Below are positions 3,347-44,431 of a stretch of DNA of 46,952 nt, in pieces; position 1 is the first letter of the stretch, and each line of letters starts with the position of its first letter. The notes under the pieces were generated by a model that worked only from the letters and a program-made list of their open reading frames with translations, did not search any database and was not told where the DNA came from. The position numbers were made by a program, and so were the translations under genes. Source of the stretch: Flavobacteriales bacterium (lineage in GTDB: Bacteria; Bacteroidota; Bacteroidia; Flavobacteriales; JANQLC01); assembly GCA_036881805.1 (NCBI GenBank), contig JBAJNK010000012.1:1-46952 (forward strand). The letters are read 5' to 3'.

Positions 3347-3735
3347 ATATCCCGTTTTTCAGACTGCGCACAGAGAAATACAAAAAGGCTGGGTTTTCAA
3401 AACGAACCCAGGTGTAAAATAAGCCCGTCTTATCAAATTGACTCAAAGGGACAAAAAACAAAAGATATCGCGTTTTTCAAGCTGACACATACGGGAGAGG
3501 CGTCAAAAAATAAGGCTAGACGGTTGGATGACTGACAGAGTCAAAACCCAAAAACGAACCAAGCGTCAAAATAAGCCTCCTTTTCAAACTGCTATGCATA
3601 CAAAAACAAAATCAAAGATAAACCCCTTCTTTATAAATCGCCACGCATATACAAACACAAAAAAACAAGCCTACTCTTCAAACCGTCAAACAGAGGTGAA
3701 AAAATAAAGTCGAGGGGTTAGACTTGGGTATATGA
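3347..3735 (-). repeat. tandem array (~10 units) of the degenerate ~45-bp GTTTGAAAAGCGGG/T-run repeat family, core on the minus strand
   Basis: The + strand shows reverse-complement units: AAAATAAGCCCGTCTTATCAAATTG (3416-3440), AAAATAAGCCTCCTTTTCAAACTGC (3568-3592), CGCCACGCATATACAAACAC (3639-3658) and AAAAAAACAAGCCTACTCTTCAAACCG (3659-3685). Confidence 0.8.
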
Positions 3736-3942
3736 CAAATCCAGTTCGGCTGACCACAGGGTTGACCTAGCTGGATGCGCGCCGCTTACCAAACCCGAAC
3801 GGCTCATAAGAACAAAAAAAGCTGTAGATTTGTCTGCCATCATTTACCTTCAATGCCTTACTGAGATGTACAAAGCCGTCTCCGCCGCCCTATTTGCAGC
3901 CGTTGCCAAACTCACAGTGACAACGCCAATCAACGATGAGCC

Positions 3943-4725
3943 TTGAGCGAGAACCCAAACACAAAAACGGTGTCCATCCATACGACGAGGGGTGGATTTT
4001 CTCTTGCTGTTTTCGACACAGCGCTCAGGCAGATTATAAGAGTCAACTCCTTTCAAAGCGATCGGTTTGATATGGCTGAGCTCGACGCTGCGATCGAAGA
4101 AAACCGAATTGTAGACCATTCGGTCCAAAGCGGTATCCTCAGCCAAAACCACTGTCGGTTTACGCTGGTTCCAGCTGCCTTTTACGATGCGAATCGAAAA
4201 AGAGATTTGCTCGCGCGCAGCACGAGAATCTCTGACTGTGAGATCGTAGCTACTGATCCGATCCCGGAGATGGGCATGCATATCGTATACGCCGATAAGC
4301 CCAAACCCAAGAGTTTGCCCAACTGCCAAAATTTACATTTCTTGACCGCTTTTTTACAATTTATAATTAAAAAAGAGCTGACCCGGGAAGCGGAGATGTG
4401 TTTTTTTGCACACCAATACCAAAACCGACTTTCCGTCTTGATCTTTCGGGATCAAAATCTACTCCTCGCCAATGCCTACAACACGTACACCGCGGCCGAC
4501 ACCCTGTATTACCTCCTGGTGCTCTTCGATAATTTTTCCCTATCAAACGAGCGTCACAAGCTCAACATATCGGGTGATTTATCCGGCGATCAAGGCTTGA
4601 ACCAATCCCTGGGCGCGTACTTCGCGAACTGTTCGGAGCTAAGTGATTTTCGAAGCCGCGTACATCCCGAACAATCGGCCGAGCCACTGGGTTTAGTTCA
4701 AACGCATCAGATCATTTTGGAGTGA
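3943..4725 (+). CDS. DUF3822 family protein
   Basis: 260-aa ORF with a TTG start. N-terminal VSIHTTRGGFSLAVFD resembles the DUF3822 LSI..S.DGFSF start. It lies directly upstream of rsmD and overlaps it (GTGA), a synteny I recall for Bacteroidota. The family call is from memory. Confidence 0.55.
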   Translation: MSENPNTKTVSIHTTRGGFSLAVFDTALRQIIRVNSFQSDRFDMAELDAAIEENRIVDHSVQSGILSQNHCRFTLVPAAFYDANRKRDLLARSTRISDCEIVATDPIPEMGMHIVYADKPKPKSLPNCQNLHFLTAFLQFIIKKELTREAEMCFFAHQYQNRLSVLIFRDQNLLLANAYNTYTAADTLYYLLVLFDNFSLSNERHKLNISGDLSGDQGLNQSLGAYFANCSELSDFRSRVHPEQSAEPLGLVQTHQIILE

Positions 4726-5273
4726 GGATTATCTGTGGACGCCACAAGGGAAAACGCATTCGCACACCCAAAAACTCGGGCGTACGCCCTACGACAGATC
4801 GCGCCAAAGAGGCCTTGTTTAACATCTTAGAAAACCGTTTTGTCTTCGGTGATATAAGCGCTTTGGATTTGTTTTCCGGGACGGGAAACATCAGCTATGA
4901 ATTGGCATCTCGAGGCGCTGCCGACATCACTGGTGTAGATAACAATCGATACTGCCGAAACTTTATCAAAAAAACTGCAGCGGAATTGGGGTTCCCGATT
5001 TGCGTGCGCTGCGAAGATGCCCTTCGCTTTTTGGAAGAGACAAATCGAGGGTTTGATTTCATCTATGCCGACCCACCCTACACCCTATGCGAGGCGGACT
5101 ACAGTAAGATTCACCGCTTGGCCTTCGATAGAAAAATATTGAAAACCGATGGGTTATTGGTTTTTGAGCATGCGAGAAGGCAAAACTTTGAAGGTCTAAA
5201 GGGTTTTTTGGAAAGGCGAAAGTACGGATCCGTACACCTCAGTTTTTTCAGCCATGGGGAGCAAAGCCAATAA
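4722..5273 (+). CDS. rsmD: 16S rRNA (guanine(966)-N(2))-methyltransferase RsmD
   Basis: 183 aa, GTG start. SAM-binding DLFSGTGNISYELASRGA and the ADPPY motif. Confidence 0.85.
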   Translation: MRIICGRHKGKRIRTPKNSGVRPTTDRAKEALFNILENRFVFGDISALDLFSGTGNISYELASRGAADITGVDNNRYCRNFIKKTAAELGFPICVRCEDALRFLEETNRGFDFIYADPPYTLCEADYSKIHRLAFDRKILKTDGLLVFEHARRQNFEGLKGFLERRKYGSVHLSFFSHGEQSQ

Positions 5274-5367
5274 ATTCCCAATGTGCCCAATCGCGATGGC
5301 TTATTTTTCATTGCTACTGCAAATTGACAGTGCCTGGGGTTATCGCTCAAACCAATGAAAACGCACT

Positions 5368-6204
5368 TTAGTCGCCCGTGGCAAATCCCCGCTTGATCGG
5401 TTTCTCTTTATATATGCGATCCAATCGATACCACAAAAACAATGCTACTACACCACTAACGATAAACCCAAGGCATTGTGTGCTGCTGATCGATGGCAAT
5501 TTCATCGCTTTTTCCAACCCCAATCGCCTCGCCTCGCAAATGAGCCATAGAAAAGCCAACAGATTATTAAAAAGGTGTATTAAAATCGGCATGAGCAAAG
5601 AATCCGTACGCCAATAGATATAACCCAAAAAGAGACCCACTGCAAAGCCAGCGACGAACTGCGCCGGATTGGCGTGCAGCAAACCGAATAAAAAAGCGCT
5701 CGAGGTGATGGCTACCCAGGGCCTATAGTTCTTTAAAAAAGATTCTAAGAAGTAACCCCTGAACAAGACTTCTTCAAAGAACGGGGCCAGAAAGACGGTG
5801 GTGATAAAAAATTCCAAAAAGTGCTCTCGATACATTTTCGCAAAGGTTTCTGCCACCGGTTCATTTAAGGGGTCGAGGGCGTCGATATGAGAGAGCCAGT
5901 GCACCAGGAGGTTACTCGTGTTGATCACGCCGAAAGCGATGATGAGCGCTGTGATCACAATTGGCCATCCGGGTAAGACAAACCGAATGCCCAGCGCTTG
6001 CCGATTTCGTTTTTTATACAAAGCGAAAAACAGCGGTAGACAGAACAAAAAAGGCAGTGCATAAGAAACGGGAATCCGCCAGTAATCCGATATATATGCT
6101 CGAACAAGTGTCCATGTGAAATGCACAAACAGGCCGACCACCATAAAGCATACCAGTAGCCCGGTCGCCTGCCAAAAATTGGGAAACCACTTTGTGTTAC
6201 TCAT
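5368..6204 (-). CDS. CPBP family intramembrane glutamic endopeptidase (CAAX protease family)
   Basis: Multi-pass membrane ORF with EEVLFRG, FGLLH and HLFNN motifs. I prefer ATG 6204 (MSNTKWF) because an exact TAnnTTTG box at 6223-6230 overlaps the ORF-track start 6225. Confidence 0.8.
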   Translation of the reverse strand: MSNTKWFPNFWQATGLLVCFMVVGLFVHFTWTLVRAYISDYWRIPVSYALPFLFCLPLFFALYKKRNRQALGIRFVLPGWPIVITALIIAFGVINTSNLLVHWLSHIDALDPLNEPVAETFAKMYREHFLEFFITTVFLAPFFEEVLFRGYFLESFLKNYRPWVAITSSAFLFGLLHANPAQFVAGFAVGLFLGYIYWRTDSLLMPILIHLFNNLLAFLWLICEARRLGLEKAMKLPSISSTQCLGFIVSGVVALFLWYRLDRIYKEKPIKRGFATGD

Positions 6205-6222
6205 ACTGCTGGGGTGCAATGG

Positions 6223-6230
6223 CAAAAGTA
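6223..6230 (-). promoter_or_regulatory. Bacteroidota-type -7 promoter box (TACTTTTG)
   Basis: Exact TAnnTTTG on the minus strand, 18 nt upstream of ATG 6204. No clear -33 TTG was seen. Confidence 0.4.
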
Positions 6231-6387
6231 GCTTTTACCAGATTGGAAAAAAAATGCAACTTTGTCCGATGTTCAATTGGAATTTACGCGGTTGGGTTTG
6301 CCGCTTATGACGAGTTTATAGCATTGTTGAATACGCATTAACCGCAACCCCAGTGTGTAAAGGCGATAAAACCCAATCTACGAGGCT

Positions 6388-7293
6388 ATGTGCAAGACCG
6401 TTTTAATTTCCGGCGGAAGCGGTATGATCGGCGATCGACTCAGCGCGGTTTTAACCCAAAAGGGTTATGTCGTAAACTGGCTCACTCGAAATCCAGGCCG
6501 AGAATCCAAATACAGATCCTATGGTTGGGACATAGAGCGCATGCAAATCGATGCGAAAGCCCTTACAAACGCCGATTATATCGTCCACTTGGCCGGCGCT
6601 GGTATCGCGGAAAAGCGCTGGACGGCCAAACGAAAAAAGATCATTGCCGACAGCCGGATAAAGGGTGCGGAACTGCTCTACCAGGGGATGGTGCAAAGCG
6701 ACCACAAACCCAAGGCGTTCCTATCGGCTTCTGGGATCAGCTACTACGGAAGCGGAAATGCCACCCAAATATATACCGAACAGGACGCGCCTGGAACAGA
6801 TTTTCTATCGGCGGTTTGTGTCAAATGGGAAGCCGCTGCACGCCGGGTTGAAAGATTGGGCATACGTTCGGTTCAATTGCGCATACCTACCGTTTTGAGC
6901 TTGCATGGGGGGGCTTTACCCAAAATGTGCGCACCCTTTAAACGCAACCTGGGTGCACCATTGGGCAGTGGCAAACAAGGATTTCCTTGGATTCATTTGG
7001 ACGATTTGGTAGCCCTGTACATCCATGCCCTGGAGCGCGAATTAAAAGGACCTTACAATGCGGTAGCCCCCGACCGAGTTCAAAATCAATCGTTTTCTAG
7101 CGCCCTTGCCAAAGCGATGCACAAAGCTTTTTTTATGCCCCATATACCCGCTTTTATCCTACGATTGTACCTGGGTGAAATGAGTGACCTCGTGCTCAAA
7201 AGCTGTTGGGCTTCCCCAAAAAAGGTAATGGATACCGGTTTTGCCTTTACCTATCCCAGTTTGGAGTTGGCTTTGCGCGACATCTTTGCGTGA
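6388..7293 (+). CDS. TIGR01777 family oxidoreductase (NAD-dependent epimerase-like, YfcH family)
   Basis: 301 aa. Rossmann motif ISGGSGMIGDRL at the N-terminus. Length and C-terminal region are typical of the SDR-like YfcH/DUF1731 family. Confidence 0.75.
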   Translation: MCKTVLISGGSGMIGDRLSAVLTQKGYVVNWLTRNPGRESKYRSYGWDIERMQIDAKALTNADYIVHLAGAGIAEKRWTAKRKKIIADSRIKGAELLYQGMVQSDHKPKAFLSASGISYYGSGNATQIYTEQDAPGTDFLSAVCVKWEAAARRVERLGIRSVQLRIPTVLSLHGGALPKMCAPFKRNLGAPLGSGKQGFPWIHLDDLVALYIHALERELKGPYNAVAPDRVQNQSFSSALAKAMHKAFFMPHIPAFILRLYLGEMSDLVLKSCWASPKKVMDTGFAFTYPSLELALRDIFA

Positions 7294-7339
7294 CTTGTCC
7301 TTTACCCATACCGTTGCATTTCGATTCTATCGACAAAGG

Positions 7340-7700
7340 CCTGCTGCGTTTGGGATGCCGACATGCTGGGATTTTTCCAATCGTTTGTTTTTGATATTTT
7401 GTGATACTTAAAAGGGAATTATTTTTGCTTTTGCGCTTTATATAGCGGTTTAAAAAAAGGTTTACTCCCGTTTGACGTTTTGAAAAGTGGGCTTGTTTTT
7501 TATTTCTGTGCTTAGCTGCGGTGATCTTTTTAGGCTGAATGGTTATATGTCGGTCTTTGGGGATTATAAATGCGGTGCGTTTGTAGCGGTGATCTTATTT
7601 TTTTGTCCTTTGTTTTTTCCGGAGTAAGGGTTTGAAAGAGGGGGTTATTTTTCGCCCCGTGGGACGCCTGGAAAAAATATAGAAGTCCTTTCTATATCTC
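7340..7700 (+). repeat. tandem array (~8 units) of the GTTTGAAAAGCGGG/T-run repeat family
   Basis: Units include GTGATACTTAAAAGGGAATTATTTTT, GCGGTTTAAAAAAAGG, CGTTTTGAAAAGTGGGCTTGTTTTTTT (core 7482), GGGTTTGAAAGAGGGGGTTATTTTT (core 7634) and GCCTGGAAAAAAT (7671). The middle units are more decayed. Confidence 0.7.
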
Positions 7701-10581: not shown

Positions 10582-11806
10582 CGTGTAAAGCGGTTATGGG
10601 TTTAATTCGAGCTGCGCGTCGGGCTGGCACATAGCCCGCCAACAAGCCCGAAACGATGAGCAAAACCGTCGCCATGATCACCATGCTGCTACTCACATAA
10701 GGGTTGGTGATAGAGTAATCCTTTAGGTTTGTGCCGATTGCCCGCAAGGTAAGCACCCCCGCTATCAGTCCCAAGTAACCTGAAATAGTCGTTATAAAAA
10801 GCGATTCCTGCAAAATCAAACCGATTACGGCTCTCGGTGTGGCGCCCAAGGCTTTGCGAATGCCGATTTCCCGCGTTCGTTCCCTTACCACGAAGACCAT
10901 GATGTTGCTGATACCAATGGCACCCGCCAGCAGTGTGCCTATACTGATCAGCGTTACGATACCGCCGATCACCTGCAAGAAAATGTCGATATTTTTCAGG
11001 GCTTTTGCACGACTGTCCACGTATATACCGCCCTGGCCGTTCGGGCTGATGAAATGGCGTCTTTTTAGGTTCTCTCTCAGTTTGTCTTGAAAAGCCATAA
11101 TCCGGTCAAAATTCATCTCCGGGTTATAAGTCAGGGTGATCAGATCCACCCCATTACCCATGTGGCGGAGTAGCTGTATGGTCGTGCGGGGTACGTATAC
11201 CCGATTCTCCGCCATGCTGTTGCCCCCCTTTTCCATAAAAACACCGATGACTTTAAAAGCGATACCATCTACGTATATGTATTTCCCCACAGCGCTTTTG
11301 TGCTCGAATAAATCGGTTTGCAACGGCTGGCCAATCACGGCTACTTTTCGCTTGTCTCTGATATCGCCATAGTTGAGGAAACGGCCGCTGCGCAAGCCGA
11401 GCTGCTCGGTAAACTGACATCCAGGGTCAACGGCCCTTAGTTGGTAATTGCCATATTCATTTCCGTGGCGAATGGGAAGCTCTAAGTGTATGCGGCCGCT
11501 CAGATTTTGAACCGTATGGGGAAATTTATCCCGTATATAGGTCAGATCCCGATTGGTCAACCGAATCTTTCGACCGCTTTCAAAACCCCTATAAGGCAAA
11601 GACGAAAAGCCTGAGTATACGTACACCGCGTTGGGTGCGTCATTTTTGAACTGACTGATAAATGAATTTCTCAAACCATTGCCCATGCCCGTCATGGCGC
11701 TGAATATATAGATGCCGATAAAAACCGTAAAGCCGCTCAGCGCGGTGCGGAGTTTGTTTTTTTTAATCGTATCGAATATTTCCCGCCAACGATCCCTATC
11801 AAACAT
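10574..11806 (-). CDS. ABC transporter permease (MacB/FtsX family), paralogue of the downstream gene
   Basis: 410 aa with the same architecture (RTREIGIRKALGA). Overlaps the ATPase gene by 8 nt. Confidence 0.85.
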   Translation of the reverse strand: MFDRDRWREIFDTIKKNKLRTALSGFTVFIGIYIFSAMTGMGNGLRNSFISQFKNDAPNAVYVYSGFSSLPYRGFESGRKIRLTNRDLTYIRDKFPHTVQNLSGRIHLELPIRHGNEYGNYQLRAVDPGCQFTEQLGLRSGRFLNYGDIRDKRKVAVIGQPLQTDLFEHKSAVGKYIYVDGIAFKVIGVFMEKGGNSMAENRVYVPRTTIQLLRHMGNGVDLITLTYNPEMNFDRIMAFQDKLRENLKRRHFISPNGQGGIYVDSRAKALKNIDIFLQVIGGIVTLISIGTLLAGAIGISNIMVFVVRERTREIGIRKALGATPRAVIGLILQESLFITTISGYLGLIAGVLTLRAIGTNLKDYSITNPYVSSSMVIMATVLLIVSGLLAGYVPARRAARIKPITALHDE

Positions 11807-12512
11807 ACTGGGGCGATCGAGTCTGATTTATCGATTTATCGCTCACGATTTTACCGTCTTTCAGATTGACGATGCGCCTCGTCATATTGGCGATGTCGGG
11901 CTCATGGGTGACGATGAGGATCGTGCGCCCCTCGTCGTTGATCTCTTGTATTAAGCGCATGATCTCATGCGAATTTTGGGTATCCAAAGCGCCTGTCAAC
12001 TCGTCGGCCAGCAGTACTTTGGGATCAGCAGCGAGTGCGCGGGCGATGGCTACGCGTTGTTGTTGCCCACCAGACAGCGCATTGGGGTGGTGTGTAGCCC
12101 ATTGCGCCAGACCCATCTTATCCAAGTAATGCATGGCGCGTTCCATGCGATCCTTGCGCCGAATACCTTGGTAATACAAGGGCAAGGCAACATTTTCTAC
12201 CGCGTTTTTGTAGCCGATTAAATGGAAAGATTGAAAGATAAAACCCAAAAATTTATTGCGATACCGGGCCGCTGTGGTTTCATTTAAATTTTTAATCGGG
12301 ACACCATCCAAAATATAGTCGCCGGAATCGGCCTCATCCAGCATACCGATAATGTTGAGTAGGGTTGATTTACCCGATCCGGAAGAACCCATAATGGAAA
12401 CCAACTCACCGACTCCAACGCTTAGACAGATGCCCTTTAGGACTTGCAATTTGTTTTTACCCGTGCGGTAAGACTTCTGCAAGTCTCGTATCTCTATCAC
12501 CGGTTCTGCCAT
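11799..12512 (-). CDS. ABC transporter ATP-binding protein (MacB/LolD-like)
   Basis: Walker A GSSGSGKST, signature LSGGQQQRVAIARAL, Walker B LLADE. Start placed at ATG 12512 (MAEPVIEIRDL). Confidence 0.9.
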   Translation of the reverse strand: MAEPVIEIRDLQKSYRTGKNKLQVLKGICLSVGVGELVSIMGSSGSGKSTLLNIIGMLDEADSGDYILDGVPIKNLNETTAARYRNKFLGFIFQSFHLIGYKNAVENVALPLYYQGIRRKDRMERAMHYLDKMGLAQWATHHPNALSGGQQQRVAIARALAADPKVLLADELTGALDTQNSHEIMRLIQEINDEGRTILIVTHEPDIANMTRRIVNLKDGKIVSDKSINQTRSPQYV

Positions 12513-12726: not shown

Positions 12727-13999
12727 TTAAATCCTTACACATTTCACTTCGAACGAACCCGACTTTTTAGGATCATCTTTTGAAGTCGCCGTGATTGATA
12801 CGATTTTTGGGGATGATTGGGAACCCCCATCGTGAACCTCGATAAGAGCGCTTGTGGAATTTGATTTAACTATTTCGACATAACTTTCATCAGAACTCTC
12901 CCAGGTTACACCTTTGTTGGTGGCTCTTTCGGTTACTACAACCGCTTCCAAATCTGCTCCGGGAAGAAGTGCTAATAATGCTGGATCATAGGACAACTCA
13001 ATTGATTTTATAGGTCTACCACTTTTCCTTTCTCTTATAATATTTCCCGACACATCCCTTGCATATACCTGTACCGCCGATATCGTCTCGTGGCAACGGA
13101 TGCTAACAATAAGGGGATTATCTGCGGTATAATCGCTCAATTTTGGTTTTGATGTATCGACTTTGTTCTGCTCGCCATTAAAAATTTTGACAAAAGAATC
13201 ACATATGCCTGGATCGCATACATCACCTAGAACGACCGTTAAATTATACCTTTCATAGCCATCGGTGGGAAAACTGATGATTGCGCCACTGCCTTCCCCA
13301 ATGTAATCTGACAATCTCACGGATATGTAAATATCGCGATAAGCTGAATTTTTATACCCTTTCAGGCTTAGCGCGGCATCGTTGGTCAATACATCGTTAC
13401 AGTAACAGTACAGATGAAAGTTCGCAATTGGTGTGGGTTCGACTCCCAGCTTTACTTCTTTTTCGCCTGTAAATGTAGTGATATAACGACCTTTTAATAA
13501 TTTGAGAGGCAATAATTGAATGGTAACCGTGTTATTGATTTGTTCATTTATCAAAGAGAACTTCACAGGTAGGATTGATTCTTTATTTACAAAATGAAGC
13601 AAGTTGGGATCGTCTTTTTCACTGACTGCTGAAAATATAGCTTCACCACTAGTAGAATTGTCAAATGCTTTTAGTTCAATGATATAATAGATGCCGGAAG
13701 TAAGTGACAATTTTTGGCTGATTCCATCTGCAACGGAATAAGTTCCTTGTTTTATGATGTATTCCGAATCGGTGGTGGGATGGATCGGGTGTAGTCGAAA
13801 TACTCAATCTCAGCTTAGTGATCTTTGCAAAATCACTTTGAATATCGTTTTGTTTTTTAACCAATGATTGGGGTAAAGCCAATTGAATTTGAATAGTGGG
13901 ATCTTGCATCCCAACACCTTGACAACCGAGGAGTACGAGAAAAAAGTAAGTCTGCAATACTTTTTTATAATGTGTCAGTACACAATTGTGATATATCAT
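12727..13999 (-). pseudogene. surface lipoprotein with C-terminal Big_2 (bacterial Ig-like) domain, apparently split by a frameshift
   Basis: The upstream ORF (13676-14008) encodes a signal peptide with lipobox (KKVLQTYFFLVLLGC), then stops. The 327-aa ORF (12727-13710, TTG) stays open upstream to 13803 in another frame. The C-terminus carries a Big_2-like GVTWESSDESYVEIV...IVSITATS segment. Confidence 0.5.
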
Positions 14000-28886: not shown

Positions 28887-28894
28887 TATATTTG
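28887..28894 (+). promoter_or_regulatory. Bacteroidota-type -7 promoter box (TATATTTG)
   Basis: Exact TAnnTTTG, 18 nt upstream of ATG 28913. It contains the TTG used as start by the ORF track, which argues against that start. Confidence 0.4.
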
Positions 28895-28912
28895 CGTCTC
28901 AAAATCAACCGG

Positions 28913-30100
28913 ATGAAAAAGCTAAAACTATCTCTGATACTCTCGTGTACCAGTCTAACGCTGATCCACGCACAAGACCATTTGGTACAGACTCCAAACA
29001 CGGCCGCCAAAGCGGGATTTCAATTTACCACAGTGGTGAATGTAGAAGCTACGCCGATTAAGAACCAAGCGAAGTCGGGTACCTGTTGGAGTTATTCGGG
29101 CGTTTCTTTTTTAGAATCGGAAATGGCCAAGGCCGGCAAAAAACCGATAGACTTATCGGAAATGTTTGTCGTTCGCAACGAATATATCGACAAGGCCAAA
29201 ATGTATGTGCGCATGCATGGGGCATTGGATTACGGAGAGGGGGGTGAGCTACACGATGTGATCAACCTATACCGAAAGTACGGGGCAGTACCCCAATCGG
29301 TTTACACCGGCTTGCACTACGGTACAAAGACCAATCAGTTCGACGAATTCTCAACCATACTAAAGGGCATCTTAAAAAGCGTGATCAAAGATGAAAACGG
29401 TAGCCTTTCAACGGCATGGCTCCCCGCTTTCACAAAAGTGGTGGATAGCTACCTGGGGCCATTTCCCAAAACCTTCACCTACAACGGCAAAACCTATACA
29501 CCCAAATCCTTTGCCAAAGAAGTCGTCGGCTTAGACCCCGATGATTACATCGAGTTTACCTCTTGGAAAAGCGAGCCCAAATGGAAGCCGGTCTTACTGG
29601 CTGTACCGGACAATTGGTCGTACGACAAGGCGTGGAACATTCCTTTCGAAGACATGACTCAAATCGTCGACCGAGCCTTGCGCAAGGGCTATACCGTCGC
29701 TTGGGCAACAGATGTCTCAGAACCGGGTTTTTCCAGAAAGGGCATTGCTTACATACCGAACGAGCCGGTGATCACCCTATCGAAGCCAGAGCGAGTCGCA
29801 CTGTTTAACGGGCCGAAGGAAGAAGCAGAGATAACAGCAGCCATGCGTCAACAGGCTTTTGACAACTACGAGACGACCGATGACCACGGCATGCAAATCA
29901 TCGGCCTAGCCAAAGATCAAAACGGCAAGGCGTATTATATGGTAAAAAATTCTTGGGGCGCCCAAAGGGGTCGCCAAGGGTACTGGTACGTGACCCAGAA
30001 TTACTTCAGGTATAAAACCACCGCCTTTTTGTTGAACAAAAAGGCCTTGCCCAAGGATATGCGCAAGCGAATCGAGAATTACAAGCCTTACGGCGTCTAG
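28913..30100 (+). CDS. pepC: C1 family peptidase (aminopeptidase C / bleomycin hydrolase-like), secreted
   Basis: Start at MKKLKLSLILSCTSLTLIHAQ (signal peptide). Catalytic Cys context QAKSGTCWSYSG. Length is typical of PepC. Confidence 0.85.
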   Translation: MKKLKLSLILSCTSLTLIHAQDHLVQTPNTAAKAGFQFTTVVNVEATPIKNQAKSGTCWSYSGVSFLESEMAKAGKKPIDLSEMFVVRNEYIDKAKMYVRMHGALDYGEGGELHDVINLYRKYGAVPQSVYTGLHYGTKTNQFDEFSTILKGILKSVIKDENGSLSTAWLPAFTKVVDSYLGPFPKTFTYNGKTYTPKSFAKEVVGLDPDDYIEFTSWKSEPKWKPVLLAVPDNWSYDKAWNIPFEDMTQIVDRALRKGYTVAWATDVSEPGFSRKGIAYIPNEPVITLSKPERVALFNGPKEEAEITAAMRQQAFDNYETTDDHGMQIIGLAKDQNGKAYYMVKNSWGAQRGRQGYWYVTQNYFRYKTTAFLLNKKALPKDMRKRIENYKPYGV

Positions 30101-30199
30101 CAAAAGTCCAAATTAAATACATGTCTATAGGTTTATAGATAGGGGTGGTGCCTTCGACTTGGCAGGCGAGCATTTCTCAATTTTGTGTCCACCCCATTC

Positions 30200-31080
30200 C
30201 TTTGGTCTCTGTGCTGGTGCATTCCCGTTTAACAGCCTGAAAGAACCTTATTTTTTAGTGTTTATCCGCTATGTCGGTTTGAAAACTGGCGGGGTGATTT
30301 TTTCCACCTATCCATGCGTAACGGTTTGAAAAGCGGGATTTTTGTTTCTGATCGGCGGTTTAAAAGGCTGCTTATCCTCCGTTTTTTGAAGGTTTAAAAA
30401 AGTGGTTTTATCCCCTCGTTCTTATCCGTGCTTGGCAGTTCGAAAAGGGGTTTGTTTCTTTGGTGTTTGTGCTGTGCGAGACGGTCTGCAATTCAATCTT
30501 TTTTTGGCGTTTGTTCCTCGCATGGTTATAGTAGCTCGATAAAAGTCCAGCCTTGTTTTTTTGATTTTATCTCTATGAGGACAGTCTGAGAAAGTAGCAT
30601 TATCTTTTTGCTTTTGACCTTATTATGGCAATTTGGAAGGGGGGTTATTTCTCCAACCCCGTTTGGCAGTTTAAAAAGCGGGATTTATTTTTTCGTTTTT
30701 TTCCATGCGTGGTGATTTAAAAGGGGAGACTTGTTCTTTGTCCGGTATGAGTAGTTTGAAAAGTGATTCTTTTTCGCTCTTTTTCCCTTTGGGGTGATTT
30801 GAAAACTCGAACTTATTTTTTCGTCTTTTTATCTCGTAGTTTATGCCGGTGAATCAACTAAAAAGAGGGATGTTTTTTTGTGTTTGTATGCACGTGGCAT
30901 TTTGAAAAGCGGGGGTATTTTCGGCTGGCGGTCTGGGGCGCGGCAATTTTTTGTTTTTCTCTTTTTGGGCGGATGTGAAAAGTGGGTCCTATCTCTTGTG
31001 TTTGTATGCACGTGGCAGTTTGAAAAGAATGGTCTTGTTTTTTTATCTCCATGGCGATGTGCTGAAGAAGTGTTCTAATC
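30200..31080 (+). repeat. tandem array (~20 units) of the degenerate ~45-bp GTTTGAAAAGCGGG/T-run repeat family
   Basis: (G/T)AAAAG-type cores at 30239, 30281, 30328, 30361, 30395, 30442, 30538, 30588, 30635, 30672, 30718, 30758, 30801, 30859, 30904, 30977, 31022 and 31064. Spacing is 32-58 bp. Confidence 0.85.
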
Positions 31081-31119
31081 GCTGCTGGTTTTGTCCTTAT
31101 GGGAGCTGTAGCCGCAGGG

Positions 31120-32304
31120 CTATTTACGCACATAAGATGTGACGTCTGCAGCCGATATTTCATCCCCACCCAAAATCAGCAAGCGTTCTACGACATTGCG
31201 CAACTCGCGAATGTTGCCCGTCCACGGGTATGCTTCTAAAAGCTGTAGAGCTTTCGGGGAAAAGCGCTTCTTTTTGGTTCCCTGTCGTTCGGTGATTTCG
31301 CGCAGAAAGTGCTCGGCCAAGAGGGGTATGTCTTCTCTGCGATCCTTAAGGGGGGGTACTTCAATCGGTATTACGGCCAAGCGGTGGTACAAATCTGCCC
31401 GGAAGCAGCCCTTTTGAATTTCTGCTCTGAGGTCTTTATTGGTAGCTGCGAGCACGCGCACATCCACCTGTATGGGCTTGTCTCCGCCTACACGGGTGAT
31501 GTTACCCGCTTGCAAGGCGCGCAAAACTTTGGCTTGTGCAGCCAGACTCATATCGCCTACCTCATCTAAGAACAAGCTGCCTTTATCCGCTTTTTCAAAC
31601 CGGCCTTTCTTTTGTTTAAACGCGCCGGTAAAGCTCCCCCTTTCGTGGCCAAATAGTTCACTTTCGATCAACTCGGAAGGGATGGCCGCACAATTGACCG
31701 CTACCAAAGGGGCTTGGTTCCGTCGGCTCTTTTGGTGAATCCAATGCGCGACGAGTTCTTTGCCAGTTCCGTTTTCTCCGGTGATCAAGATGCGCGCATC
31801 GGTATTGGCTACCCTTTCAATAAGCGATTTGATCGTCACCATCGCCTTGGATTCACCCACCATTTCATAGCTTTCGGATACCTTTTTGCGAAGTCTTTTG
31901 TTTTCCCGATGCAAGGTTTGGTTGGAATCCAACAGATTTTTTCGGTCGACAGCATGGCGTACCGAGGTGAGCAAGCGATTTAAGTCCGGGGGCTTGGCGA
32001 TAAAGTCAAATGCCCCTTTTTTCAAGGATTGTACAGCGGTTTCTATATCGCCATGTCCCGAAATCATAATAAAGGTGCTATCGGGTTTAAGGGCAATCGC
32101 TCGTTCCAACACCTCCATGCCATCTATCTTCGGTATTTTAATATCGCAGAGGACGACGTCAAAATCGGTTTCCCTTATCTTTTCAATGCCCGCAACACCA
32201 TCGGAAGCCTCCGAAACAGCGTAAGAATCATCTTCATCTACCAATATGTTTCGCAAGACATTTCGGATGTTCTGTTCGTCTTCAATGATGAGAATTTTTG
32301 CCAC
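31120..32304 (-). CDS. sigma-54-dependent response regulator (REC + AAA+ domains, no C-terminal HTH)
   Basis: 394 aa. REC domain (DVVLCDIKIPKIDG), Walker A GENGTGKEL, GAFTGA variant GSFTGA, Walker B LFLDEV. The protein ends about 20 aa after the AAA+ domain. Confidence 0.9.
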   Translation of the reverse strand: MAKILIIEDEQNIRNVLRNILVDEDDSYAVSEASDGVAGIEKIRETDFDVVLCDIKIPKIDGMEVLERAIALKPDSTFIMISGHGDIETAVQSLKKGAFDFIAKPPDLNRLLTSVRHAVDRKNLLDSNQTLHRENKRLRKKVSESYEMVGESKAMVTIKSLIERVANTDARILITGENGTGKELVAHWIHQKSRRNQAPLVAVNCAAIPSELIESELFGHERGSFTGAFKQKKGRFEKADKGSLFLDEVGDMSLAAQAKVLRALQAGNITRVGGDKPIQVDVRVLAATNKDLRAEIQKGCFRADLYHRLAVIPIEVPPLKDRREDIPLLAEHFLREITERQGTKKKRFSPKALQLLEAYPWTGNIRELRNVVERLLILGGDEISAADVTSYVRK

Positions 32305-43599: not shown

Positions 43600-44398
43600 G
43601 TTCTGCTATAGGCTCGCCTTTATCCTGTGCGGGACATTTGAAAAGCAGGTCTTTTTTGTATTTTACCTTTTGTGACGCTTTCGATGAGGGCCTATTTTCT
43701 CAGTGTTTGCCACTATGGATCGGTTTGAAAGGCGGGTCTTATCTCTCATCCCTGTGGGGCATTTGAAAAGGGGGTGTTTTTGGGTGTTTGTCGCCCTGCA
43801 TAGTAGTTTAAAAAGCAGTCTATTTTTGCTTTTGACCTTTTGTAATGTAAGAGTAACACCTCATTTTTCTTCCTCGGTCGATAGTCTGAGAGCCGGGTTT
43901 ATCTCTCTGTTTTTGTAGGACTGGTTTAAAACGTGGAATTGCGCTTTTTGTCCTTTTTTGCTGTAGGGGTGGGGTTGGAAAGGGGCCTATTTTTCTATCC
44001 CGTATATCGGTTTGGAAGATCGGGGTGTGGTGGTTTTTTGGTTTTGTTCCAAGCGGGTAATTAAAAAAGGGATTTTTTGTATTTGTCCTTTTGAGCTGGT
44101 TTGGTAAGCGGGGCCTATTTTTATTCCTGTGTGGCAGTTTGGAAAGCGGGGACTTATTCGGGATTGCGACAGCTGCTATTCGTCACCCATTTATCCGTGC
44201 GTCAATTTGAAAAGGAACGCCCGACTTCTTTGGTCTCTATCTTTTGTGCGGGTTTAAAAATCTGGCATTACGCTTTTGTACTTTTTCTGTGGCATATCTG
44301 AAAGGGCTGGCCGCTATCTCTCGCTTTGCATCGAATTGCAAAATCCCAATCACGGCTCGGAGTGGCGCGCAGCTGAAAAGCCCATCTTATTTTTTTGT
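43600..44398 (+). repeat. tandem array (~18 units) of the GTTTGAAAAGCGGG/T-run repeat family
   Basis: Cores at 43640, 43684, 43727, 43765, 43809, 43847, 43888, 43927, 43977, 44014, 44062, 44103, 44141, 44209, 44255, 44300, 44338 and 44375. The last unit ends about 35 nt from the dnaK stop. Confidence 0.85.
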
Positions 44399-44431
44399 TC
44401 CCGCCACCCCACCAGTCGTTGAATCGCTTCT

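Follow-up and report, generated by a model that had tools for sequence, protein, structure and literature searches.

Degenerate, strand-polar arrays of an apparently undescribed non-coding repeat at gene 3' ends in a coral-associated Flavobacteriales lineage

The gap between pepC and a sigma-54 activator gene in a 46,952-nt stretch of DNA from an uncultured Flavobacteriales bacterium (hereafter the window, meaning the whole stretch that was analysed) is filled with degenerate direct units of about 44 bp. These units belong to a non-coding repeat family that is real and, apparently, undescribed. Whole arrays of the family are collinear with one another across loci and in a second species, and substitutions accumulate in the copies no more slowly than at synonymous sites. 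The arrays may well be neutrally drifting relics of a past block-wise amplification of one dispersed element, a reading to which we give an even chance.

Results

A first-pass annotation, made from the sequence alone, had described about 20 tandem units between pepC and the sigma-54 activator gene. The purine runs that it listed were all present as described (18/18), but core-anchored segmentation found 17 cores in 30200-31090, so that the repeat stands and the count comes down to ~17-18 units (Table 1). Each unit consists of a TTTGAAAAG core, followed by (C)GGG and then a T-run. Across the four arrays of the window the units have a median spacing of 44 bp, with 79% of spacings within 34-50 bp and extremes of 30 and 73 bp. 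The strand composition of array C (T 0.40, G 0.25, A 0.19, C 0.16) agrees with the G/T-richness that had been judged by eye. About 30 bp separate the end of the array from the stop codon of the sigma-54 activator gene, which lies on the minus strand; its product has receiver, AAA+ and lid domains and is without an HTH domain. On the other flank, the pepC open reading frame was 402 aa long, and the called form, with a different start, was 395 aa. The non-array spacer 3' of pepC showed no significant similarity to the pepC 3' flank of PL25a_bin.37, either locally or globally (flank identity at shuffle level).

Table 1. Positions of the repeat arrays and of the features flanking array C in the window.
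Feature	Position	Strand	Description
Array A	3347..3810	minus (G/T-rich strand)	~8-10 units; matches the middle of the long profile
Array B	7380..7690	+	~5-6 units; convergent gap between an epimerase gene (plus) and a 4HBT thioesterase gene (minus)
pepC (Peptidase_C1_2, C1-family aminopeptidase)	28892..30100	+	left flank of array C; G/T-rich strand of the array is sense
Non-array spacer 3' of pepC	30101..30227	+	gcatttctc-atttt-gt- seemingly common with the PL25a_bin.37 pepC 3' flank, by eye only
Array C	30228..31090	+ (G/T-rich strand)	~17 degenerate direct units of ~44 bp; aligns collinearly with D and P1
Response-regulator sigma-54 activator	31120..32304	-	right flank of array C; A/C-rich strand of the array is sense
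Array D	43600..44400	+	~18 units; end ~30 bp from the stop of minus-strand dnaK

The profile scan that had been proposed as a check bore the repeat out: in nhmmer the unit profile matched array C with E-values down to 3e-8 and left coding DNA almost unmatched. The window has 10 exact matches to TTTGAAAAG, and 9/10 of these lie inside the four arrays, each on the G/T-rich strand of its array; with one mismatch allowed there were 63 matches in the window against 27.5 ± 5.6 in shuffles. Core-anchored units had a mean ungapped identity of 0.36-0.47 (unit likeness is elsewhere given as ~45-57%), and the core is kept far better among units than the sequence between cores. Two species share the unit consensus. 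Neighbouring units were no more alike than distant ones, and recent unit duplicates are almost absent, with a single 32-nt pair at 97% identity. Tandem Repeats Finder, run on the window, gave no report for the arrays because their units are too divergent.

No ORF of at least 66 aa lies wholly inside array C, which has stop codons in every frame and no ORF in phase with its units, and the number of inverted repeats in 30100-31120 was 0. A tRNA/tmRNA scan found none, and Rfam returned no family at the gathering threshold and one chance match only at a permissive threshold. According to Pfam annotation, the genes flanking all four arrays, and those of most of the window, are housekeeping only. 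Earlier statements that the region holds no consistent hairpin, convincing ORF or cas genes were thus sound, as was the statement that there are no unique spacers, since family consensus and keto skew are both present in the inter-core sequence itself.

Units of this family also fill three further gaps of the window, as had been claimed, and arrays A, B and D are real. Together the four arrays comprise 41-49 units depending on threshold, rather than the 55 first counted, whilst their total of 2504 nt (5.3% of the window) fits the ~2.4 kb and ~5% of the original estimate. Six arrays lie in 50.8 kb of the window genome, with further ones in two relatives, and arrays A, B, E and P2 and that of L414 also align to the long profile. 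Seven of the eight distinct arrays are downstream of a gene stop, which is to say all those with known flanks (the upstream flank of E is lacking), and most are in convergent gaps. Divergent gaps held no arrays, either in the window or among arrays with known flanks. Array A starts right after the stop of a plus-strand YjbR-family gene and lies upstream of a DUF3822 gene. Comparison of the left flanks of six arrays with one another, and likewise of their right flanks, showed no common sequence (junctions, end modules), and a transposase, element ends and target duplications were not found.

The arrays are also oriented. In 7/7 arrays with known flanks the adjoining gene, whose stop is 0-75 bp away, has the A/C-rich strand as its sense strand, with 90-270 bp of non-array DNA on the opposite side; as either orientation follows a gene stop in a convergent gap, only array A is truly informative here. 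In 5/5 informative arrays (a small sample) the A/C-rich strand runs in the direction of most local genes. Keto skew was 0.15-0.33 in the window-genome arrays, and in intact arrays it is strong and opposes the local coding-strand skew. The split array P2 had a keto skew of 0.09, compared with 0.23-0.33 in other arrays of at least 300 bp; it has lost most of its skew, one sign that disruption is tolerated. A keto-skew scan of other loci was non-specific, as coding regions gave equal values.

Array C aligned to P1, an array at a non-syntenic locus in another species, with a score of 201, and to array D with a score of 194. When unit order was permuted the observed score was reached in 0/200 permutations (z = 4.5 for C-P1 and 3.8 for C-D), and a three-way alignment of C, D and P1 was collinear over ~850 columns, at pairwise identities of 56-57% for C-P1 and C-D. 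Since the arrays are collinear across loci and in a second species, they are copies or fragments of one ancestral, internally periodic element, not locally grown minisatellites. The positional orthologues C and P2 scored 93-101, below the non-syntenic pair C/P1, which implies unequal rates or gene conversion between arrays. Aligned globally under lenient gap costs, orthologous intergenic regions had an observed identity equal to that of shuffled sequence.

Comparison of array D with its counterpart in L414 showed how the copies change. The dnaK-proximal 460 bp of the array is ~86% conserved in L414, whose DnaK is 97% identical. The two arrays were 84-87% identical and so less conserved than the dnaK four-fold sites of the same pair (91.4% identical), and the core plus 4 positions was 83.6% identical compared with 86.6% for other positions (Fisher p = 0.46; one array pair, 64 substitutions). 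Change in the present-day copies is thus no slower than at synonymous sites, and the core has no extra protection.

Pieces of about one unit have also been added to or lost from copies, and inserted genes have broken up or shortened some of them. Array D differs from the L414 array by an indel of unit size (~40 nt), but between 99.9%-identical assemblies no unit-size indels were seen over arrays B (part), C (part) and D; one homopolymer indel was seen between near-identical assemblies. In L203 the pepC array is split by a 2.6-kb gene insertion. In L414 the distal half of D has been replaced by a helicase/methyltransferase gene block, and the dnaK-proximal part is still attached to dnaK despite the changed neighbour on its other side. 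Array B is missing at the syntenic site in PL25a_bin.37. Arrays nevertheless persist in three species with otherwise compact genomes (four-fold identity down to 0.71).

Among ~400 loci the family was found in three related coral/marine genomes and in none of the others, so that by sequence comparison the repeat appears confined to a small coral-associated Flavobacteriales lineage. An exact-pattern scan of genome contigs with GCAGTTTGAAAAGNGGG, insensitive enough to miss the PL25a_bin.37 copy, gave single chance matches only, among the matches listed. A three-core gapped pattern returned 120 chance matches and no family member from metagenome contigs, and blastn of array C against plasmids and phages gave no match. 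The literature yielded no described counterpart, which agrees with the initial impression that the repeat was not a described element.

Within the tests run, the arrays are without coding, RNA-structure, promoter or hairpin-terminator signals. An array of antisense promoters had been proposed, but sigma-70-like sites in the array were at shuffle level, and the Bacteroidota promoter (TTTG at -33, TAnnTTTG at -7 and ~19-21 nt between them) had a single match in the window, which lies in array B (1.5 expected); TAnnTTTG is absent from array C. An array of multiple hairpin terminators, also proposed, fared no better. Terminator-like sites in the array numbered 2 against 1.8 in shuffles, and hairpin-plus-T terminators were not enriched anywhere in the window. 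A CC...GGG stem around the core (CCGC/GCGG, CCCG/CGGG or AUCC/GGAU by eye) failed a permutation test over 66 units, in which 155/500 and 118/500 shuffled arm pairings did at least as well.

RNA folding of the array gave no signal (z = -0.36 and +0.71), and RNAalifold on three arrays returned a weak, arbitrary structure (-55.8 kcal/mol over 1355 columns). Intrinsic DNA curvature, from a wedge model, was at z -1.2 to +1.3 against shuffles. Four resemblances noticed by eye were discarded: to the sigma-54 -24/-12 promoter, where the spacing is off by one; to the DnaA box, where TTATCC is followed by GTG or ATG, not ACA; to Haemophilus uptake sequences (core plus two T-tracts), which are not tandem; and to Gram-positive Chi (AGCGG / GAAGCGG), where the conserved part here is TTTGAAAAG, not CGG.

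Discussion

Our preferred reading is that of an old amplification. An ancestral element of ~0.85 kb, already made of ~17-18 diverged ~44-bp sub-repeats with a common core, would have been copied in blocks, through copy-paste or recombination, to many sites just downstream of genes and mostly in convergent gaps. Such copies may persist since gene 3' ends tolerate them, and any present role would probably be a bulk property (spacer, or unstructured RNA richer in C than in G) and not recognition of a motif. Several observations weigh against this. The better retention of the core than of inter-core sequence among units calls for selection to have acted on the core at some time, in the progenitor if not later. 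The arrays have been retained in compact genomes, where deletion bias should remove junk, and intact arrays keep a strong keto skew despite the opposite local coding-strand skew. Their orientation (5/5 informative arrays) is non-random in this small sample. The positional pair C/P2 is less alike than the non-syntenic pair C/P1, the comparison that suggests neutrality covers one array pair with 64 substitutions, and the search for a transposase, element ends or target duplications that might account for the spread found none.

Alternatively, the arrays might be selected, polar pads for termination or insulation that separate convergent transcription units in a lineage with few hairpin terminators, a possibility that we regard as unlikely but would take seriously. 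Rho would load on the long, unstructured A/C-sense RNA, in which C exceeds G, and U-runs every ~44 nt in the G/T-sense RNA would slow RNA polymerase. Consistent with this, the A/C-sense RNA had a median C/G of 1.06-2.13, compared with 0.91 in mRNAs, and 30%-97% of its 78-nt windows had a C/G above 1.5, compared with 5.5% in mRNAs. Its predicted fold was weak as well (-39.9 kcal/mol per 301 nt, z = +0.7). The position of the arrays after gene stops and outside divergent gaps, the A/C-rich sense strand beside those stops, the window's lack of enrichment in hairpin-plus-T terminators and the part of D that stayed with dnaK after its other neighbour changed would all suit such a role. However, a rut site needs ~80 nt, and arrays of 300-900 nt with a repeated core go far beyond that. 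The C/G of array A, the lowest at 1.06, barely qualifies as rut, the core is not extra conserved, inserted genes have split arrays, and syntenic sites have lost them. It is similarly doubtful that a master element, copied block by block, spread and renewed pads placed directly after stops, a predicted repeat-based end to convergent transcription.

Somewhat less probable again is a platform for a sequence-specific DNA-binding protein (a nucleoid-associated protein, topoisomerase or insulator), in which the core would be the putative site and the sites would be phased at gene 3' ends, by analogy with BIMEs, which are bound by gyrase or IHF. The short, non-palindromic core with its strict strand polarity, its ~44-bp recurrence and its better retention than the flanking sequence could suit such a protein, as could a consensus common to two species and a convergent-gene-end niche resembling that of E. 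coli REP/BIME. Against it, the core evolves as fast as the rest between close relatives, and the spacing of 30-73 bp means that the sites are not helically phased. Nor did intrinsic curvature exceed that of shuffles, and no candidate protein was identified.

The first-pass annotation had also considered a neutral, expanding minisatellite, and its neutral-looking evolution was borne out. That each array grew in place by slippage or unequal recombination is, however, improbable. The direct, tandem structure, the unit-size indel between the window and L414 and the homopolymer indel between near-identical assemblies are what local growth would leave. The unit order common to arrays across loci and species (z = 4.5 and 3.8) would not arise from independent growth; adjacent units resemble each other no more closely than distant units do, Tandem Repeats Finder gives no detection, and the arrays are collinear copies of a ~0.85-kb element with stable copy number.

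We give almost no credence to guide-RNA arrays (CRISPR or TIGR type) or another family of structured non-coding RNA genes: short conserved motifs do alternate with more variable segments, and a C/D-box snoRNA match at 30518-30611 was at chance level (E = 2.6), but the variable segments carry the family consensus and keto skew and are not unique spacers, the annotated neighbours include no cas or Nop-domain (tas) gene, several arrays occur per 50 kb, and folding, consensus structure and the stem permutation test gave no significant signal. CRISPR arrays share with ours a periodic short conserved motif with more variable DNA between, as do TIGR arrays, which are likewise too degenerate for standard repeat finders. 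The near-identical 23-55 bp repeats, unique constant-length spacers and cas genes of CRISPR have no equivalent here. TIGR arrays sit at tas loci, which encode a Nop-domain protein, and are anchored by box C/D nucleotides (bioRxiv 10.64898/2026.09.09.750476). In contrast, our arrays have no adjacent Nop-domain gene, have a ~44-bp period and have a consensus without the RUGAUGA...CUGA frame.

The arrays may also be set beside the dispersed intergenic repeats of other bacteria. Enterobacterial REPs are imperfect palindromes of alternating orientation that are linked to RAYT transposases. Likeness to REP/BIME, another early suggestion, held for the genomic niche: both occupy extragenic gene 3' ends and avoid divergent gaps, in mosaic clusters that make up a visible share of intergenic DNA. 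It failed for the anatomy, as our arrays have no palindromes or other inverted repeats and no alternating orientation, all units being direct and the strands strongly asymmetric. Pneumococcal BOX elements have conserved boxA and boxC end modules with a stable fold, around tandem boxB modules of ~45 bp, and neisserial NIMEs have 50-150-bp modules whose units are bounded by 20-bp inverted repeats. Like these, our arrays are intergenic composites with a variable number of tandem modules, but they have no conserved end modules and no folding signal.

Mycobacterial MIRUs are dispersed intergenic minisatellites with direct tandem units of ~40-100 bp, oriented to flanking genes and encoding no conventional protein. 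Our arrays share with them direct tandem units (median spacing 44 bp), many intergenic loci in one lineage, orientation and a non-coding nature. MIRU copies are similar enough for strain typing by copy number, whereas likeness among the present units is ~45-57% and assemblies that are 99.9% identical do not differ in copy number (no VNTR behaviour); the unit-size indel appears only where dnaK four-fold sites are 91% identical. MIRUs sit inside operons, with small ORFs that overlap neighbouring genes, whereas most of the present arrays are in convergent gaps, and stops interrupt every reading frame. Whole ~17-unit arrays are, moreover, homologous to one another here.

Bacterial families of dispersed intergenic repeats are few, and the present one is a non-palindromic, strand-polar addition to them. 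If the arrays are relics, ~5-6% of a compact genome region in an uncultured, coral-associated Flavobacteriales would consist of fossil copies of one periodic non-coding element; if they are instead termination pads, they would represent a new, repeat-based solution to ending convergent transcription. Standard repeat finders miss the element, which matters for the binning, assembly and annotation of such MAGs. Most short-read contigs of the lineage that we examined end in or beside the repeat.

Structure of the Repeat Units

Array C fills the gap between pepC, assigned by Pfam to the C1-family aminopeptidases, and a gene for a response-regulator sigma-54 activator; within 29900-31400, the plus-strand gene stops at 30100 and the minus-strand gene at 31120. 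All 18 purine-run coordinates recorded in the first-pass annotation were present (18/18). The repeat array itself was confirmed, but the count of about 20 units fell to 17 in 30200-31090 when units were anchored on the core TTTGAAAAG. Across the four arrays of the window the median unit spacing was 44 bp, with 79% of spacings within 34-50 bp. An nhmmer profile made from 21 units matched array C with E-values down to 3e-8 and had nearly no matches in coding DNA. The exact core occurs 10 times in the window, 9 of these within arrays and all 9 on the G/T-rich strand of the array; allowing up to one mismatch, 63 copies were found vs 27.5 ± 5.6 in shuffles.

The plus strand of array C is composed of T 0.40, G 0.25, A 0.19 and C 0.16. 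On the G/T-rich strand, units run from T-runs (CTTATTTTTT, GTnTTTGT) through CC and nTGnGTGGCAG to TTTGAAAAG and (C)GGG. Among units, conservation is much stronger in the core than anywhere else, flanking positions showing only a weak consensus; the sequence between cores keeps this family consensus, in agreement with the earlier statement that there are no unique spacers. No inverted repeats were found in the array C gap, and there were no ORFs of at least 66 aa wholly within the array or phased with its units. A search of Rfam, as the first-pass annotation proposed, matched no family in the array, and no tRNA genes were found. Tandem Repeats Finder detected no array in the window because the units are too divergent.

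Distribution and Polarity of the Arrays

The three other gaps thought to hold the same family (arrays A, B and D) do so, and the four arrays add up to 2504 nt (5.3% of the window), close to the earlier estimate of about 2.4 kb and roughly 5%. A 3.9-kb leftward extension added arrays E and F, giving six arrays in about 50.8 kb.

Positions of the repeat arrays and associated features (window coordinates unless a locus is named)
Feature	Position	Context
Array A	3347-3810	inverted relative to C
Array B	7380-7690	
Array C	30228-31090	pepC/activator gap
Array D	43600-44400	
Array E		leftward extension; upstream of TonB-dependent receptor gene
Array F		leftward extension; between TonB-dependent receptor gene and BaxI-family gene; ~5 units
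Array P1		PL25a_bin.37; non-syntenic gap between DUF1203 gene and unknown gene
Array P2		PL25a_bin.37; pepC array
Array-adjoining ORF	L203 14982-15422	
Sigma-54 activator	31120-32304 (minus)	394 aa
PL25a_bin.37 activator orthologue	L203 11264-12448	
Thioesterase 3' segment	7690-7766	ggttgacgcttaacccaaccgttttaagtgagc...
Similar segment	L285 ~11741-11880	
L203 insert	L203 12842-15422	three or four ORFs without Pfam matches
L414 block	L414 12619-21684	S24 peptidase, ResIII/SNF2 helicases, N6/N4 methyltransferase
L285 foreign-looking gene	L285 11905-13123	Big_2-like ORF
Rearranged segment	40639-43330	compared with L203 1-2872
Conserved ORF without Pfam family	12727-13710 (minus)	327 aa
Conserved ORF without Pfam family	L285 17128-17784	218 aa

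The window spans one entire contig of 46,952 bp. The MAG GCA_044670265.1 and the Logan assembly SRR27962760 contain the same DNA as the window (99.9% identity). Only two related organisms were found. Genes of PL25a_bin.37, a Flavobacteriales MAG, are ~83% identical to the window in nucleotides (71% at four-fold sites); PL25a-prefixed MAGs were recovered from Porites lutea coral skeleton (PMC9868349). The DnaK of the SANT21-1_SAMN15702776 organism is 97% identical to that of the window. One contig of a Tara marine metagenome includes a pepC with 79% identity. The family was present in the window's organism and both relatives (3/3), and absent from ~400 other loci compared (together 4.1 Mb, with many of Bacteroidota origin); plasmid and phage records gave no match to the array, and a literature search found no description of the family.

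All arrays with known flanks, those other than E, sit downstream of a gene stop. Convergent gaps hold six (B, C, D, F, P1 and P2) plus the array at L414, a scaffold locus of the SANT21-1 organism, where it is the positional counterpart of D, and one array (A) lies in a co-directional gap. Divergent gaps within the window are short, and no arrays lie in them. The arrays come to within 0-75 bp of the stop of one neighboring gene, for which their A/C-rich strand is sense, these genes being YjbR, thioesterase, activator, DnaK, TonB receptor, gene X of PL25a_bin.37 and an ORF at L203 of the same MAG; the opposite side of each array has 90-270 bp of non-array DNA. The A/C-rich strand lies on plus in E, F and A, where plus-strand genes dominate, and on minus in C and D, where minus-strand genes dominate, thus following the majority gene direction in 5/5 informative arrays; B lies at the switch. 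At L414, array D keeps its dnaK-proximal half joined to dnaK, whilst the array's other neighbor has been replaced by an S24-peptidase, helicase and methyltransferase gene block. The polarity relative to the adjoining gene is suggestive rather than proven, because the sample is small and convergent gaps offer a stop for either orientation.

Homology Between Whole Arrays

Array C aligned collinearly with P1 (local score 201) and with array D (194). When unit order was permuted in the partner, scores fell to ~127 ± 17 (z = 4.5 for C-P1 and 3.8 for C-D), and 0/200 permutations reached the observed score. A three-way MAFFT alignment of C, D and P1 was collinear over ~850 columns, with 56-57% pairwise identity for C-P1 and C-D. 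The resulting profile placed the other arrays on sub-ranges of one consensus (A, E = 4e-14; P2, 6e-14; E, 1.5e-11; B, 3e-3; L414, 2.7e-47). As whole arrays are collinear, dispersal took place in blocks of many sub-repeats, and these alignments point to an ancestral element of ~0.85 kb that was internally periodic before its blocks dispersed.

We favor, at about even confidence, a reading of the arrays as relics of an old, internally periodic element. Copies and fragments of this non-coding ancestor would have been dispersed in blocks, all in a single orientation, to the 3' ends of genes, and would now be decaying close to neutrally.

Evolution of the Arrays

The clearest test was the comparison of array D with its L414 counterpart. 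Four-fold sites of dnaK were 91.4% identical and the arrays 84-87%, with one unit-size (~40-nt) indel. Core-plus-4 positions were 83.6% identical (107/128) and other positions 86.6% (277/320; Fisher p = 0.46); 21 changes were seen in core-plus-4 positions vs ~6 expected if the core evolved three times slower. Inserted genes (2.6 kb) interrupt P2, which aligns poorly and has lost most of its keto skew (0.09 vs 0.23-0.33 in other arrays of at least 300 bp), and array B is absent at the PL25a_bin.37 site. The D/L414 rates, the split of P2 and the absence of B fit unconstrained, disruption-tolerant DNA. Three observations do not fit simple neutrality. Among units the core is much better kept than the flanks, so it must once have been under selection, in the progenitor if nowhere else. 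Arrays have persisted in three species. The syntenic pair C/P2 scored 93-101, lower than the non-syntenic C/P1 (201), which implies that rates differed or that gene conversion took place among the arrays.

Tests of Specific Functions

The Bacteroidota -7 box TAnnTTTG precedes many window genes (e.g., at 6223, 17476, 17540, 28745, 28887 and 41127) and is absent from array C. The combined -33/-7 pattern was at chance level and sigma-70-like sites in the array at shuffle level, so the suggested antisense-promoter array was not borne out. Nor was a multi-terminator array of the hairpin type: array C had no hairpin terminators beyond chance, and hairpin-plus-T sites across the window were no commoner than in shuffles (29 vs 23.3, 26 vs 26.4 and 5 vs 8.5), with few at gene ends. 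Folding of array C gave z = -0.36 (plus strand) and +0.71 (minus strand), and RNAalifold returned a weak, arbitrary fold. A CC...GGG stem enclosing the core was rejected, as it failed a permutation test on 66 units; the earlier view that there is no consistent hairpin thus stands.

The A/C-sense transcript is weakly folded, with C/G medians of 1.06-2.13 vs 0.91 in mRNAs, a composition compatible with Rho loading, though far from proof. In the main rival reading, intact arrays would be selected, polar termination or insulation pads working through Rho. This would account for their position downstream of stops and their polarity, for a transcript that is unstructured and has C>G, and for hairpin terminators seeming to be missing, but leaves the array length and the unprotected core unexplained, and we consider it unlikely. 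We regard a protein-binding platform as less probable still; the curvature prediction proposed in the first-pass annotation gave no excess over shuffles (wedge model).

A locally growing minisatellite is very improbable. Since unit order is shared, the arrays cannot each have grown independently in place, in agreement with adjacent units being no more similar than distant ones, recent unit duplicates being almost absent and no conserved end modules being found. Between the 99.9%-identical assemblies, arrays differed by 2 SNPs and one homopolymer indel, with no change in unit number. Of the proposed neutral expanding minisatellite, neutral-like evolution was retained, but local expansion was not, the arrays being collinear and, between these assemblies, stable in unit number. 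A guide-RNA array is scarcely credible: annotated neighbors include no cas or Nop-domain genes, bearing out the earlier report of no cas genes, and a CRISPR or TIGR array was rejected on this ground and for want of unique spacers.

By analogy, the nearest known kinds are the dispersed intergenic repeats MIRU, REP/BIME, BOX and NIME. A REP/BIME-like mosaic, as once proposed, matches in genomic niche but not in anatomy, since palindromes are missing. MIRU has the same tandem ~45-bp-type format, but its VNTR behavior and overlapping small ORFs are missing here; the boxB tandem ~45-bp format is likewise common to both, but BOX end modules are missing. Whole-array homology and strong strand polarity are two further, unusual traits of the family.

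Neighboring Genes and Contig Ends

Most short-read contigs examined from this organism and its relative end in or at the edge of arrays: L083 (window 3800-7501), L283 (ending at window 30643), L415, L413 (starting in array E and ending 40 bp past YjbR), and the MAG contigs JADOBR010000161.1 and JADOBR010012477.1. An exception is L082, which stops at window 43525, in the spacer ~75 bp short of array D. Long exact repeats are scarce in the arrays. In this lineage the family seems to restrict the contiguity of MAGs, which is of practical relevance to assembling and annotating them. At L081 15747-16308 (562 bp past the window's right end), a MAG contig terminates in ...GTGTGGGTTTGGTAAACGG, which resembles the GGGTTTGGTAAGCGG variant at the start of array A (~3785-3800) and within D (~44097); another array probably lies just beyond that end.

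Foreign-looking genes lie within or replace arrays at L203, L414 and L285, and new genes may land preferentially in the arrays or simply be tolerated there. The ~75 bp directly after the thioesterase stop look conserved by eye at L285 of PL25a_bin.37, where the adjacent array B is absent, and could be a terminator belonging to that gene or some small 3' element. The sigma-54 activator has receiver, AAA+ and lid domains and no C-terminal HTH; its PL25a_bin.37 orthologue is equally long, which makes the truncation ancestral rather than a product of the array. Two conserved ORFs have no Pfam family. A local rearrangement separates the two species: in PL25a_bin.37 an AhpC/TSA-family gene comes 88 bp after the WG-repeat gene, and both array D and dnaK are missing from that position.
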